The translations under genes and the position numbers were made by a program. The notes under the pieces were generated by a model, which was not told where the DNA came from, did no database searches, and saw only the letters and a list, made by a program, of their open reading frames with translations. From Kiritimatiellia bacterium (GTDB lineage Bacteria; Verrucomicrobiota; Kiritimatiellia; UBA8416; SLMC01), in contig SLMC01000317.1 in the NCBI GenBank assembly GCA_007133745.1, forward strand, positions 1 to 18,925: 18,925 bases of DNA, written 5' to 3'. Shown here one piece after another: positions 1,198 through 18,012 of this stretch; position 1 is the stretch's first letter, and each line of letters begins with the position of its first letter.

Positions 1198-1374
1198 TGG
1201 AATCATGGAATAGTGGAAGATTGGAGTGTTGGAAACTCTTGAAAGCCAATGGTCGGCCATTTGTCTTGCCTCGGACTTTCGCACAGTGCGTTGCATAATT
1301 TCCGAGAGAGGCAATCACGGTTTTCCGCTTGCTATCATTGTTCCAACATTCCCCCATTCCATTATTCCAATGGG
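1198..1374. repeat. Composite GGAAT-repeat inverted-repeat element, copy 1: left arm 1198-1236, right arm 1335-1374, central palindrome CGCACAGTGCG 1280-1290
   Basis: Left arm is TGGAATcaTGGAATagTGGAAgaTTGGAgtgTTGGAAAC. The right arm reverse complement is TTGGAATaaTGGAATgggGGAATgTTGGAAC. The arms are ~75% identical as inverted repeats. The palindrome sits exactly at the element centre. Confidence 0.75.
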
Positions 1375-2817
1375 ATGACGGTGAAGAAAAGAGGGGGGGG
1401 TCGCAAGGTGACGCAAAGGAGAAAAAACAGACGCGGTTTTCATGCGCCAACCCGGTCGTGGCGGTTGAGCGTTCTTCTTTTGGCATGGGCTTTGCCGGGT
1501 GCGGGGTGGGCATTCGATGTCAACGACATGGATTGGAGTCTCAAGGGAGATGCGTTCGTCAAGGCGACGCGCGATCTCAAGCGGGACAGCGATCTTGAGG
1601 CGCGTCAGGCGCTGGACAGTCGGGCCCGGCTCGAGAATACGCTGCGTTTCGGCGATAGCGGCGTTATGGCGGCGCTGCACGGAGAGGCGCGTTACGAAGC
1701 GTTCGACATGCGGGAAGGGGGGAACTGGGATTTTCTGCTTCGGGAAGCCTATGCCGAATTCCGGCGCGAGACCTTCAATATCGGCTTGGGCCGCCAGATC
1801 GTCACATGGGGAAAGCTGGACGATATGATGATTCTGGACCAGCTTTCGCCGCAGGATTTCCGCTGGTTCGCCTTTTACACCAAGCAGGAACGCAAAATCC
1901 CCGTGTTCATGCTCAAAACCGGGTATTACGGCCCGCGCTATTCGATCGAGGGGGTCTTGATTCCGGTTTTCACGCCGTCGGAGATCGACTATTTCGGGAC
2001 CGACTGGGCGCTGTTCGGGCGCATGAAGGAAACCGTGGCCGGCGGGCCCTGGCCGGAGCCGGTCAAACAGATGGTCGGGTCGATCGACATTGACGACCGT
2101 ACGGCGGCCAATACGGCGGAGGGCGGAGTTCGGCTGCGGGCGACGGAAGGCCGTACCGACTACGCGTTGTATTACCTGTCTTATTACAACCGCTTGCCGG
2201 CCTTGCGCGAATACACGCCCGCTGGGCGCTTGACCAAGCAGTTTCTTTTTATGCCCGGCCCGGATACGTTGAGCGCGCTGGCGGCGGCGAATCCGACGGC
2301 TCGGGACTTGACCCTGGATGCCGGATACGAACGCGTACACGCGGTGGGCGTGGATTTCGAAACCGTGATGGGGTCGTACGGGGTGCGTGGCGAATGCGGA
2401 TTCTTTTCCGATTTGCCGTTCACCCGCGCGAGCGATTTGGCCTATGTTCGCAAAAAGACCTTGGCGGCCGGAATCGGCGTCGATTACACGACCTTCAACA
2501 ACCTGTACTGGAACGTGCAGGTGGTGGCCAACAAGATTTTGAACACCGAGGATTTGGTCGAGACCGAGTCGTTTTCGCAGGAAATCGTTTTGAATGTCAA
2601 CAGGGACTTCATGATGGGCGATTTGACTTTGGACTTCAGCGGAATCTATCAGATCACGGAGGGCGGCTGGATGGCACGCCCGGAAATGGCTTACACGATG
2701 CGGGCGGGACTGGATCTGATTTGCGGCCTGCTCTTGCTCGGCGGCGACGAGACATCCATGTTCGGCCGTTACAAGCACAAGGACCTGATTTACACCCAGC
2801 TTCGGTACCGGTTCTGA
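1375..2817 (+). CDS. Outer-membrane beta-barrel protein, possibly DUF1302-like; partner of the upstream LolA-like protein
   Basis: Long ORF with a Sec signal (RSWRLSVLLLAWALPGAGWA). The C-terminal ...QLRYRF ends in Phe, typical of OM beta-barrels. The start is ambiguous: ATG 1375, or GTG 1408 with a strong GAGGGGGG RBS. Confidence 0.55.
   Translation: MTVKKRGGGRKVTQRRKNRRGFHAPTRSWRLSVLLLAWALPGAGWAFDVNDMDWSLKGDAFVKATRDLKRDSDLEARQALDSRARLENTLRFGDSGVMAALHGEARYEAFDMREGGNWDFLLREAYAEFRRETFNIGLGRQIVTWGKLDDMMILDQLSPQDFRWFAFYTKQERKIPVFMLKTGYYGPRYSIEGVLIPVFTPSEIDYFGTDWALFGRMKETVAGGPWPEPVKQMVGSIDIDDRTAANTAEGGVRLRATEGRTDYALYYLSYYNRLPALREYTPAGRLTKQFLFMPGPDTLSALAAANPTARDLTLDAGYERVHAVGVDFETVMGSYGVRGECGFFSDLPFTRASDLAYVRKKTLAAGIGVDYTTFNNLYWNVQVVANKILNTEDLVETESFSQEIVLNVNRDFMMGDLTLDFSGIYQITEGGWMARPEMAYTMRAGLDLICGLLLLGGDETSMFGRYKHKDLIYTQLRYRF
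1393..1400. repeat. Homopolymeric G8 tract at the start of the beta-barrel gene
   Basis: The sequence gaGGGGGGGGtc lies inside the ORF if ATG 1375 is the start. It is the RBS for the alternative GTG at 1408. Confidence 0.85.
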
Positions 2818-2886
2818 CTCCAAATTTGCCGCTTGCATTCCGGCTCGGATTTTGGAAAAGTTCGCGTATTGAAGGATTGGTGCGGT

Positions 2887-2916
2887 TTGGTCGGGCTTGG
2901 TCCGCCTGCATATAAT
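2887..2916 (+). promoter_or_regulatory. Putative sigma70-type promoter for the NfeD-flotillin operon, with phased TTGGT repeats upstream
   Basis: -35-like TTGGTC (2887-2892), 18-nt spacer, perfect TATAAT (2911-2916), ~55 bp before the start. TTGGT recurs three times at ~10-bp spacing between 2877 and 2901. Confidence 0.35.
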
Positions 2917-17200: not shown

Positions 17201-17831
17201 GGCGCTGGGCGGCGACGGCTGGGCCTACGATATCGGGTACGGCGGGCTCGACCACGTGCTGGCGTCCGGTCGCAACATCAACGTTTTGGTGATGGATACG
17301 GAAGTGTATTCCAACACGGGCGGGCAGGCGTCCAAATCCACGCCGATGGGGGCTGTGGCCAAGTTTGCCGCCGGCGGCAAGCCGACCATGAAGAAGGAGA
17401 TGGGGCTGATGGCCATGACCTACGGCACCGTCTATGTGGCGACCGTGTCCATGGGCGCCAATCCGAACCAGGTGGTCAAAGCCTTCGTCGAGGCCGAAGC
17501 CTACGACGGGCCGTCCCTGATCATTGCCTACTCGCATTGCATCGCGCACGGCATCGACATGACCAACGGACTGGTGAACCAGAAGGAAGCGGTGCTTTCG
17601 GGCCATTTCCCGCTGTATCGCTTCAATCCGGCGCTGGCCGAGCAGGGCAAGAATCCGCTGACGCTCGACAGCAAGACGCCGACCATGTCCTTCAGCGAGC
17701 ATGCGTTGAAAGAAAACCGGTTCAAGATGCTGCTCAAGTCGGACCCTGAAACGGCCAAGCGTCTGATGGAACACGCCGACAAGACGGTCAAGTCCCGTTT
17801 CGAGCGGCTGGAAAAGATGGCGGGCGCGTAG
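14250..17831 (+). CDS. por: Pyruvate:ferredoxin (flavodoxin) oxidoreductase, single-polypeptide PFOR
   Basis: 1193 aa. The N-terminus [35 protein letters not shown] is PFOR-typical. Two 4Fe-4S ferredoxin Cys motifs are present ([24 protein letters not shown]), as is the TPP-binding GDGW region. Confidence 0.9.
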   Translation: [1193 protein letters not shown]

Positions 17832-17845
17832 CCCGGCAGGAGAAT

Positions 17846-18012
17846 ACGGAATCTTGGAATACTGGATTGTTGGAATGATGGATGCCATGGCAAATCAGAC
17901 TGTTGCCTATTGAGCGTTAGGCTTTGCGCCAATCTTGCGCCGCATCTTTTCCCGGTGCGAGACGTGTGTTTTGGCCTTCTATCATTATTCCAATCTTCCA
18001 TCATTCCATTGT
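17846..18012. repeat. Composite GGAAT-repeat inverted-repeat element, copy 3: left arm 17846-17890, right arm 17981-18012, central near-palindrome GCGCCAAtcTTGCGC ~17926-17940
   Basis: Left arm is CGGAATcTTGGAATacTGGATTgTTGGAATgaTGGATgccATGG. The right arm reverse complement is AATGGAATgaTGGAAgaTTGGAATaaTGAT, a 26/29 match to the copy-2 left arm. It starts 15 bp after the por stop and ends ~40 bp before the next start. Confidence 0.75.

Follow-up and report, generated by a model that had tools for sequence, protein, structure and literature searches.

IS91 and its relatives IS801 and IS1294, together with the related ISCR elements, are described as lacking inverted repeats; IS91 targets GAAC/CAAG and carries a small accessory gene, orf121, immediately upstream of tnpA (PMC13181058). 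Intervening sequences (IVSs), which interrupt helix 25 or 45 of 23S rRNA in Leptospira, Coxiella, and Brucella, consist of an inverted-repeat stem around an ORF of the PF05635 family, occur also as ORF-less short forms, and are regarded as selfish elements whose mobility is unknown, and the stem region of the Coxiella IVS contains tandem GACAGAT heptamers in variable copy number (PMC4990558). PF05635, named both 'four helix bundle' and 23S rRNA intervening-sequence protein, is an S23p/Avd-like family. Ralph and McClelland reportedly proposed in 1993 that the IVS ORF might be a mobility factor. In diversity-generating retroelements, the accessory variability determinant Avd is a small protein that binds nucleic acid, and its gene lies directly before that of the element's enzyme. 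Bacterial MITEs and the REP/BIME, ERIC, Correia, and BOX repeats are small, ORF-less, intergenic, multi-copy imperfect palindromes that lie in either orientation, are co-transcribed with neighbouring genes, and are each confined to one genus or family. Helentron/DINE-1 elements are Y2-HUH rolling-circle transposons with non-autonomous copies that combine subterminal inverted repeats with internal short tandem repeats. These last elements are eukaryotic and unrelated in sequence to those described here, and serve as an analogy only (cf. PMC4067079).

The window analyzed here, a stretch of 18,925 nt from a Kiritimatiellia bacterium, contains three ORF-less intergenic elements of 170–210 bp (Table 1), and the shared architecture that the original prediction assigned to three intergenic regions is present in all of them. 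Each arm consists of 3–5 tandem TGGAAT(R)(W) octamers (TGGAATNN), with the units of both arms pointing inward; array detection thus bears out the predicted 3–5 TGGAA(T) units followed by an inverted arm. The period is exactly 8 bp in 14/14 unit spacings in the window, not about 9–10 bp as first estimated, and the arrays within a copy are separated by 103–112 bp instead of a spacer of about 90 bp. The palindrome reaches about 15–20 nt outside the arrays in the form of boxes resembling CACNGTCATCCAAT. Both the octamer arrays and, in copy 1, the outer boxes are inverted; the arrays are subterminal and not strictly terminal. The centre of copy 1 is oriented as in copy 3, whereas copy 1 (1184–1352) aligns with copy 2 as an inverted match of 169 nt at 72%, which indicates that these two copies have opposite orientations.

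All window copies are flanked by co-directional protein-coding genes on the + strand. Copy 3 starts 16 nt past the stop codon (17829–17831) of the PFOR gene and ends 17 nt before the ATG (18055) of a V/A-ATPase-E-like gene, and about 28 nt separate the end of copy 2 from the next ATG, in agreement with the predicted distance of 15–60 bp. The genes 3′ of the copies are mutually unrelated, encoding a DUF1302 outer-membrane protein, an HHH/Roadblock protein, and the ATPase-E-like protein. The elements are real and non-random: at a detection threshold of at least 3 units, the window contains five arrays and two inward-facing pairs, compared with a mean of 0.042 arrays, a maximum of one, and zero pairs in 500 dinucleotide-preserving shuffles. 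The likeness of arms between copies is likewise genuine, with 8240–8279 and 17970–18009 being 83% complementary.

Table 1. Positions, strands, and unit composition of the palindromic elements in the window.
Feature	Position	Strand	Units or remarks
Copy 1, whole palindromic element	1175..1383	+	RNA fold −73.1 kcal/mol, z −5.4
Copy 1, order of parts			outer box CACCAGTATCATCCCAT, five TGGAATNN units, centre, four NNATTCCA units, outer box ATGGGATGACGGTG
Copy 1, left arm, GGAA-sense, five octamers	1198..1237	+	TGGAATCA TGGAATAG TGGAAGAT TGGAGTGT TGGAAACT
Copy 1, central motif AGTGCGTTGCATAATTTCCGAGA	1285..1307	+	likeness to the right-end motif TTGTAGAAATTCCGAGACGT of IS91-like relatives, suggestive only
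Copy 1, right arm, TTCC-sense, four inverted units	1341..1369	+	TTCCAACA TTCCCCCA TTCCATTA TTCCA
Copy 2, whole element, degenerate, flipped relative to copies 1 and 3	8241..8411	-	inverted match to copy 1
Copy 2, arm, three good units and one degenerate	8241..8272	+	TGGAATGA TGGAACGT TGGAATAA
Copy 2, opposite arm, decayed	8368..8397	+	TTCCAATC CTTCGCTA TTCCCAAA TTCCAT; under the 3-unit detection threshold
Copy 3, whole element	17847..18038	+	RNA fold −70.4 kcal/mol, z −5.9
Copy 3, left arm	17847..17886	+	CGGAATCT TGGAATAC TGGATTGT TGGAATGA TGGATGCC
Copy 3, right arm	17988..18011	+	TTCCAATC TTCCATCA TTCCATTG

The window copies are insertions that have been dispersed in either orientation and are decaying. 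Further copies, for which a search had been proposed, exist beyond the window: a fourth lies 3 kb past its end, giving this lineage four copies in 22 kb, and copy 3 is 77% identical over 164 nt to positions 2881–3043 of locus L077 in another PVC-group genome, where the element sits between unrelated genes at a locus unrelated to that of copy 3. Between the PFOR gene and the E-like gene, the window has a spacer of 223 bp, compared with 46 bp in the related locus L123 and 12 bp in L124; because the 46-bp spacer belongs to a relative with the same gene order, copy 3 is recognized as an insertion. No arrays were detected in the 44.6 kb of relatives L123, L124, L227, and L228, and the orthologous promoter regions of relatives are devoid of elements. 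The search for empty sites and target-site duplications was thus successful in its first part, but no duplication is evident in the five aligned copies with their flanks, the ends being judged against one empty-site relative with 71% protein identity; judged against this sole empty site, the borders of the window copies show no consistent GAAC/CAAG either.

The octamer arrays belong to a widespread family. The single arm pattern used for counting matches at least 119 genome loci, distributed over eight or more phyla, and the family is abundant in Desulfobacterota, Bacteroidota, and PVC-group bacteria from sediments. Paired arrays are inward in 68 cases and outward in none, with gaps of 10–307 bp; the period is 8, arrays most often comprise 4 units, and arms range from 3 to more than 19 units. 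The unit logo (T.88 GGAA T.7 R W T.88) is identical in the window, the genome loci, and the PF05635 loci described below. As originally predicted, the elements match no named repeat family: none of the covariance models of Rfam 15 matches anywhere in the window, on either strand, at E ≤ 1, and the family was not found in the searchable literature. Three size classes have common arms: elements of about 2.0–2.1 kb with a PF05635 gene, an IS91-family Y2-HUH transposase gene, and a small Cys-rich ORF; elements of about 0.5 kb with a PF05635 gene alone; and elements of 70–400 bp without an ORF, to which the window copies belong. Deletion intermediates (L138, L141, and L090) connect these classes.

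Arrays co-occur with the PF05635 gene. This gene lies between the arms at three genome loci, and at 75 metagenome PF05635 loci at least 3 units are present on both sides in 42, at least 2 units in 56, and none in 4. In four loci (L178, L154, L151, and L225), the arms enclose a PF05635 gene and, directly downstream of it, a Zn_Tnp_IS91/Y2_Tnp transposase gene, which is frameshifted in L178 but intact in the other three (412 aa in L154, 420 aa in L151, and 430 aa in L225). Across about 90% of its length, the transposase shares 34% identity with annotated IS91 family transposases (E 2e-60); its homologues form large clusters and come almost exclusively from contigs about 2 kb long. The tetranucleotide at the left end, just 5′ of TTAG, is GAAC in nine cases and CAAG in six (Desulfobacterota subfamily). 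These full-length relatives therefore share with the IS91 family the transposase domains, GAAC/CAAG adjoining one end, and a small accessory ORF immediately upstream of the transposase gene, as well as GC-rich subterminal palindromes at both ends and the lack of target duplication, but differ from it in having two inward TGGAATRW arrays just inside the ends and PF05635 as the accessory gene. The PF05635 protein of the larger elements matches PDB 2GSC and has a fold family in common with Avd (PMC10053308), although reverse transcriptase and template/variable repeats are absent here and the partner is an HUH transposase. Transposase relatives with 56–59% identity that have both end motifs lack both the arrays and PF05635, which indicates that the two are gained or lost jointly.

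The window copies, unlike the IS91 family, have no recognizable IS91-like termini. Profiles of the TTAG-hairpin-CAATT and TTGTAGAAATTCCGAGACGT ends match nothing at their outer borders, from which the TTAG-hairpin and TTCCGAGACGT motifs are absent, and the only right-end-like motifs are those in the centres: in an nhmmer search over 60 kb, the best match of the right-end profile is the centre of copy 1 (1285–1307; E 0.017), and weaker matches lie at the equivalent sites of copies 2 and 3 (8296–8287(−) and 17958–17965(+); E 2.7 and 8.3). Neither a PF05635 gene nor a Y2 transposase gene was found in 22 kb of the window genome or in 8 kb of L077; the Y2-HUH transposases detected between such arms come from other members of the family.

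On balance, the three window elements and the fourth copy are probably non-autonomous, ORF-less miniatures of a selfish family of palindromic octamer arrays. The MITE-like mobile element of the original prediction is accordingly the favoured alternative, given the empty site, the copies at unrelated loci, the cross-phylum family with inward arms, and the larger relatives that carry PF05635 and an IS91-family transposase; it is unlikely to be a classical MITE with terminal inverted repeats (TIRs) and target-site duplications (TSDs), because target duplications are not visible and neither feature is used by the transposase family with which the elements are associated. The window copies would owe their dispersal to a partner element acting in trans, most likely an IS91-type transposase of the rolling-circle kind that acts via a single-stranded intermediate. 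The octamer arrays may serve the PF05635 protein as a docking platform, the protein acting by analogy with Orf121 of IS91; alternatively or additionally, the arrays may zip both ends of the single-stranded intermediate together in any register. On the host side, the copies would merely be co-transcribed with the flanking operon genes, with copies 1 and 3 predicted, as a by-product, to fold into long, imperfect hairpins of the kind that serves as an RNase III substrate.

A rather unlikely alternative is that the array hairpin, with or without PF05635, is an independent IVS-type element with a mechanism of its own, which the IS91-like transposons of Desulfobacterota have captured; the window copies would then be miniature IVS-like hairpins with no rolling-circle link. 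The arrays follow PF05635 and not the transposase, and the borders of the window copies lack IS91-like end motifs. In addition, PF05635-only elements have several unrelated outer flanks, which suggests that the array/PF05635 module may move by means other than an IS91-like enzyme. The layout is also that of the Coxiella/Leptospira IVS, in which an inverted-repeat stem with short tandem repeats holds the S23p ORF in its loop (PMC4990558): copies 1 and 3 have an IVS-type stem, and the family shares variable-number tandem repeats in the stem, ORF-less short forms, and, in relatives of the window copies, the PF05635 ORF. Unlike IVSs, however, these elements lie between protein-coding genes (the Rfam 15 scan detected no rRNA in the window), and their arms are a specific octamer array of fixed polarity. 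Moreover, no mobility mechanism is known for IVSs, whereas the arrays also enclose a transposase in four full-length elements, deletion intermediates join the size classes, and the right-end-like motif occurs in the centres of window copies. Dispersal by a DDE transposase that binds TIRs in trans and leaves a TSD after cut-and-paste is very unlikely. The inward units do resemble transposase sites in TIRs, and the elements are small, dispersed, and ORF-less (four in 22 kb and one in L077), but no target duplication is visible in the five aligned copies, the 3 kb around each of the 119 loci contain no recurrent DDE transposase, arm length is variable, and HUH/Y2 is the only transposase type found between such arms. 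The family also differs from MITEs and the REP, ERIC, Correia, and BOX repeats in having no sequence or Rfam match to them, in its arms of tandem octamers in variable number, and in spanning eight or more phyla.

The possibility that the elements are host-selected intercistronic hairpins, serving as mRNA stabilizers, terminators, or RNase III processing sites for flanking operons, is unlikely, even though copies 1 and 3 and the L077 copy fold far better than shuffles and, by crude gene calls, co-directional genes flank 27/32 of the family members that could be scored, with the element often beginning 0–5 nt after the stop codon. Hairpin potential is absent from copy 2 (z −0.4 on the + strand, −0.7 on the − strand) and decayed in copy 4 (z = −1.7). 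Comparison of arms within an element with arms paired at random across elements at variable unit positions (0.47 vs 0.52; 0.26 vs 0.37) revealed no compensatory change, and there is no G·U excess on the ORF-sense strand (G·U vs A·C, 104 vs 89; p 0.31), which together with the decayed folds indicates that a sequence motif is conserved and not a maintained RNA helix; selection acts on the octamer motif and its polarity, not on base pairing. Thus the hairpin reading of the original prediction holds for the predicted folds of copies 1 and 3, but not for selection as a structure. A helix would not need strict GGAAT-to-ATTCC polarity or a conserved octamer, the elements contain no U-tract terminator and have no Rfam match, and the copies are recent insertions. 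Least likely of all is that they are arrays for a host protein, either a DNA-binding regulator that loops the downstream promoter or a CsrA/Rsm-type RNA sponge. Phased conserved units do look like arrays of cooperative operator sites, of which the 8-bp metboxes bound by MetJ are an example, and ANGGAN-like motifs occur. A local regulator array is nevertheless disfavoured because the neighbouring genes are unrelated and the insertions lie in either orientation, independently of the genes, and relatives lack the elements in orthologous promoter regions. The proposed CsrA/Rsm-type array fares no better, since the GGA motifs of copies 1 and 3 are paired in the predicted fold, Rfam offers no matching model, and the elements are common in Bacteroidota, in which CsrA is, to our knowledge, generally absent. 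A CsrB/RsmZ-type protein-sponge sRNA is likewise not supported, given that GGA is not predicted to be exposed, Rfam gives no match, and the copies have no promoter and terminator signals on either side.

As probable miniatures of the octamer-array family, the window copies are dead or dying passengers, and their main practical effect is on annotation, through intergenic regions about 180 bp longer, spurious ORFs, and hairpins in operon transcripts; the family also causes breaks in metagenome assemblies, at about 2 kb. A transposon is here linked to the '23S rRNA intervening sequence protein' family, which had long gone unexplained. Tentatively, PF05635 proteins may be sequence-specific partners of TGGAATRW arrays and accessory factors of rolling-circle (IS91-type) transposition, in which case the array-flanked PF05635 genes found across many phyla, ORF-less hairpins like the window copies, and possibly 23S rRNA IVSs could be reduced transposons of this type. 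If true, this would provide the first function and mobility mechanism for the S23p/IVS family, and would bring an inverted-array architecture into a transposon family defined by the absence of inverted repeats.

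The window contains three intergenic regions with paired inverted arms, located where the original prediction had placed them (see table). The arms consist of octamers (TGGAATNN) in tandem. All 14 spacings between units are exactly 8 bp, which corrects the unit period of 9–10 bp assigned to them earlier; this period without spacers speaks against CRISPR-like and satellite-like readings. An array detector finds five arrays and two inward pairs in the window, compared with a mean of 0.042 arrays and no pairs in dinucleotide-preserving shuffles (n = 500). Homology among the copies spans the centre as well as the arms, and the palindrome reaches about 15–20 nt past the arrays as CACNGTCATCCAAT-type boxes, with a T-rich stretch on one side. 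Copies 1 and 2 match as an inverted pair (72% over 169 nt); copy 2 thus has the opposite orientation to copies 1 and 3, although the genes around all three copies lie on the + strand. The three pairs of flanking genes are unrelated to one another. Protein matches assign the organism to the PVC group, either Kiritimatiellia or Lentisphaerae.

Arms and neighbouring genes of the three copies in the window
Copy	GGAA-sense arm	TTCC-sense arm	Upstream gene	Downstream gene
1	1198–1237, five units	1341–1369, four inverted units	LolA-like	DUF1302
2	8241–8264, three good units	8368–8397, decayed	metallophosphoesterase	HHH_3/Roadblock
3	17847–17886, five units	17988–18011, three units	pyruvate:ferredoxin oxidoreductase (PFOR)	V/A-ATPase-E-like

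Scans for sigma-70 promoters and intrinsic terminators within the copies give background levels, and Rfam has no match in the entire window at E ≤ 1. Copy 1 is edged by an A9 run on the left (1166–1174) and a G9 run on the right (1390–1398), and at 1056–1079, after the LolA-like gene, lies a small hairpin with a T tract that resembles a terminator. Close to the left contig end, about 11 tandem AGGACTA (GGACTAA) heptamers directly precede the LolA-like gene (134–211; wider extent, 111–222), with more degenerate GCTAGGG units further upstream and no inverted partner within the window; this array could represent a single arm of another hairpin of tandem units, truncated where the contig ends. The gene pair downstream of copy 2, which encodes an HHH_3 (ComEA-like) protein and a MshEN-REC-PatA_N response regulator, is kept in related PVC contigs (window 8439–12021; L227 2134–5244; L228 2730–6071). 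The HHH_3 protein is fused to a Roadblock/LC7 domain in the window, whereas in L227 and L228 a separate Roadblock/LC7 gene lies divergently upstream.

A metagenome contig 99.9% identical to the window adds 3 kb beyond it. Further copies exist: the extension contains a fourth, between two − strand genes (L001 13026–13196), and another lies in the PVC-group metagenome-assembled genome L077, shares 77% identity with copy 3 across 164 nt and has unrelated flanking genes; the centres of the window copies have no match apart from this one. The subfamily seen in the window is thus far known from five copies only. The empty site that was sought is provided by a relative from the same metagenome with matching gene order, in which the spacer between the PFOR gene and the E-like gene is 46 bp, versus 223 bp in the window, and in which the E-like protein is 71% identical to that of the window; the same spacer is 12 bp in a Kiritimatiellia genome. 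Arrays are absent from four related contigs (44.6 kb in all). Where the HHH_3/Roadblock gene after copy 2 has orthologues, arrays are likewise absent, and a different upstream neighbour means that these loci supply no empty site. Taken together, the short spacers of relatives and the array-free related contigs identify the copies as lineage-specific insertions in otherwise tight intergenic regions, and not as ancestral control regions.

The long RNA hairpin, one of the readings offered for the copies, is predicted in part: copies 1 and 3 fold into long imperfect hairpins (z −5.4 and −5.9, respectively), and copy 2 has no fold on either strand (z −0.4 and −0.7). The z score declines from that of copy 3 through −3.4 (the L077 copy) and −1.7 (copy 4) to −0.4 in copy 2. 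When variable unit positions are compared between arms of one element and arms randomly paired across elements, no arm-to-arm covariation is detected (identity 0.47 versus 0.52 at position 6, and 0.26 versus 0.37 at position 7), and among elements whose sense strand is set by an internal ORF there is no excess of G·U over A·C pairs (104 versus 89, p = 0.31). The arms pair at about 72% because they are arrays of one motif inverted. It is the octamer and its direction that are conserved, and this favours either common descent or a protein that recognises the sequence over an RNA structure that is being maintained.

The same arrays recur widely. A scan of a species-representative genome collection (596 Gb) with a single arm pattern, TTCCAAYNTTCCNNNATTCCAT, returns at least 119 matching stretches, whereas an estimated 35 or so are expected by chance from 17.5 specified bases in 596 Gb. 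Among the matches listed, Desulfobacterales, Syntrophaceae and other Thermodesulfobacteriota account for most; Bacteroidota, Planctomycetota, Verrucomicrobiota, Kiritimatiellia and Lentisphaerae contribute many others, and Chlorobiota, Aminicenantes and Nitrospinia a few. Loci among these listed matches hold 223 arrays, and all 68 neighbouring pairs run from GGAA-array to TTCC-array, never in the reverse order, with arm-to-arm gaps distributed continuously from 10 to 307 bp. Since the inward order reads alike on either strand, this polarity is a real constraint, beyond what a mere hairpin imposes. The unit logo (T 0.88, GGAA, T 0.7, R, W, T 0.88) is common to the window, the genome loci and the loci with PF05635 genes described below, as are the 8-bp spacing (96% of unit spacings) and the modal number of four units per array; element centres and outer flanks differ by lineage. 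By crude gene calls, the context is co-directional in 27 callable cases, divergent in three and convergent in two, and many elements begin 0–5 nt past a stop codon. Arrays are occasionally expanded to 19–41 units in a microsatellite-like manner, and the identity of units in such expansions indicates that arrays evolve by slippage as well as by substitution.

Expansion is seen mainly in Bacteroidota and Verrucomicrobiales. Arrays of 12–41 units with runs of identical units include L023 3422–3570 and 5182–5274, L008 4525–4640 and L105 1939–2113, and one array of 41 units occurs among the PF05635 loci (L125–L204). A scan of viral contigs gives 18 matches, none with paired arms; some represent a single group of phages that carries an unrelated TTCCAATA triplet, and the others fall within coding sequence. 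Other intergenic hairpins have the same build with different 7–8-nt units (e.g., ACGAAGC/GCTTCGT, GTTTGAAG, CTCCACA), at L056 ~4800–5025, L036 ~4560–4620, L018 ~215–330, L014 ~7560–7600 and L055 ~700–790, and some of them adjoin GGAAT arrays. The octamer-array elements may belong to a wider class of palindromes built from tandem units.

Clustering of the ORFs that neighbour the 119 listed loci reveals no recurrent transposase, and exposes ORFs of PF05635, the "four helix bundle" (S23p) family of 23S rRNA intervening-sequence (IVS) proteins. At three genome loci, arrays 433–511 bp apart surround one small PF05635/TIGR02436 ORF (E ~1e-17 to 1e-18), which also matches PDB 2GSC. A metagenome search with these proteins gave 151 relatives; 75 of the best 80 had enough flank, and 42 of these 75 loci have at least three GGAA units upstream and at least three TTCC units downstream of the gene. 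At least two units are present on both sides in 56 of the 75, and fewer than two on both sides in only four; as the queries were array-flanked proteins, these counts say little about distant PF05635 proteins. Reversed polarity, with the TTCC array upstream and the GGAA array downstream, is seen only at the near-identical loci L162 and L171, where complementary GTCTTTATTCT and AGAATAAAGAC adjoin the arrays; these might represent a permuted copy from a circle junction. Literature searches on the arm sequences, on GGAAT repeats in Desulfo-bacteria and on repeats flanking TIGR02436/PF05635 genes returned nothing relevant and no mention of the repeat. In a large CRISPR-discovery study, "23S rRNA IVP" is among the proteins associated with CRISPR arrays (PMC10910872), and octamer arrays around these genes might lie behind that listing by array finders.

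At several loci, a gene encoding Zn_Tnp_IS91 and Y2_Tnp domains lies 5–30 nt downstream of the PF05635 gene. Complete elements (L178, L154, L151, L225) have four octamers per end, about 2.0–2.1 kb apart, and contain the PF05635 gene, the transposase gene and a short Cys-rich ORF. L154 (412 aa), L151 (420 aa) and L225 (430 aa) have an intact transposase ORF; that of L178 is frameshifted. Over about 90% of its length, the array-associated transposase shares 34% identity with annotated IS91 family transposases. Beyond the arrays, the left terminus consists of TTAG, a GC-rich hairpin and CAATT, and the right terminus of a hairpin followed by TTTCAATAAGTTGTAGAAATTCCGAGACGT. Among about 20 genuine ends, the tetranucleotide directly 5′ of TTAG is GAAC in nine and CAAG in six, in agreement with the target specificity of IS91, GAAC/CAAG (PMC13181058). 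Both termini are present in many ORF-less Desulfobacterota copies, and deletion intermediates are found: the transposase is internally deleted in L138 and L141, and in L090 a C-terminal fragment is joined to the right arm.

At right ends (e.g., L007, L011, L029, L043, L112), NN-AATTA-N follows the conserved ...TTCCGAGACGT in most copies; either the real terminus is about 7 nt further out or an AATTA-like site is preferred on the right side. The Cys-rich ORF (~80–86 aa, CxxC...CxxC) lies after the transposase gene (L178 1939–2178; L132 3075–3323; L225 3032–3289; L230 3321–3581), has no Pfam match on record and also occurs in relatives without arrays and PF05635.

The window copies share their arms, in logo, period, unit number and polarity, with all of these loci and elements. 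Termini of the Desulfobacterota type are not found at their borders, the left-end profile of the IS91-like elements has no match in the window, and a by-eye left-end match in copy 3 (TTAGGCTTTGCGCCAAT) is unsupported by that profile. The best match of the right-end profile in 60 kb is GTTGCATAATTTCCGAGA in the centre of copy 1 (E 0.017), with weaker matches at the equivalent place in copies 2 and 3, and one ORF-less Desulfobacterota subfamily also carries such an inner motif; as a link between the window copies and the IS91-like relatives, the motif is suggestive only. Neither a PF05635 gene nor a transposase gene lies within the 22 kb of window and extension. The window copies are inserted, dispersed, orientation-independent and decaying ORF-less members of an octamer-array family that includes PF05635-only and PF05635-plus-transposase forms.

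The window copies were probably multiplied in trans by a partner element, for which the best candidate is a Y2-HUH rolling-circle transposase that acts on a single-stranded intermediate. In such an intermediate, pairing between the arrays would be possible at any offset divisible by 8, so that the ends could be joined even where the arms do not match exactly. That the octamer is conserved and its polarity fixed suggests recognition of the units by a protein, and the PF05635 protein is the obvious candidate because it accompanies the arrays, takes the position of Orf121, the small regulatory ORF directly upstream of tnpA in IS91 (PMC13181058), and belongs to the fold family of Avd, a nucleic-acid-binding partner of DGR reverse transcriptases (PMC10053308).

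In the main rival reading, arrays and PF05635 gene form an IVS-like element in its own right, which an IS91-like transposon merely picked up. The array-flanked PF05635 loci have the same layout as S23p-carrying 23S rRNA IVSs, in which an inverted-repeat stem with variable-number short tandem repeats carries an ORF in its loop, and which are viewed as selfish elements whose means of moving is unknown (PMC4990558). Moreover, transposase relatives at 56–59% identity keep both terminal motifs and lack the PF05635 gene and the arrays alike, so that the arrays go with the PF05635 gene. Set beside the complete elements and their deletion intermediates, in which arrays, PF05635 gene and transposase lie together between IS91-like termini, this rival appears less likely than multiplication in trans by a Y2-HUH partner, although the data fit both. 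An octamer-array element resembles a MITE in how it works, and its larger relatives are IS91-family elements as judged by their transposase. They differ from that family, which uses palindromic oriIS/terIS ends, lacks inverted repeats and makes no target duplication (PMC13181058), in their inverted octamer arrays.

Compared with the descriptions found, the inverted octamer arrays, the PF05635 accessory gene and the cross-phylum swarm of miniature derivatives are new. Host transcripts probably read through the window copies together with their operons, in which case the transcripts of copies 1 and 3 would fold into hairpins resembling RNase III substrates; any effect of the copies on neighbouring genes is regarded as a by-product. 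Of the 120 best homologues of the array-associated transposase, nearly all lie on contigs of 1.3–4.9 kb, almost exclusively of about 2 kb, and many fall in clusters of tens to 197 sequences, a pattern typical of a repeat whose many copies interrupt assembly. The IS91-like array family appears to break assemblies of sediment metagenomes frequently.
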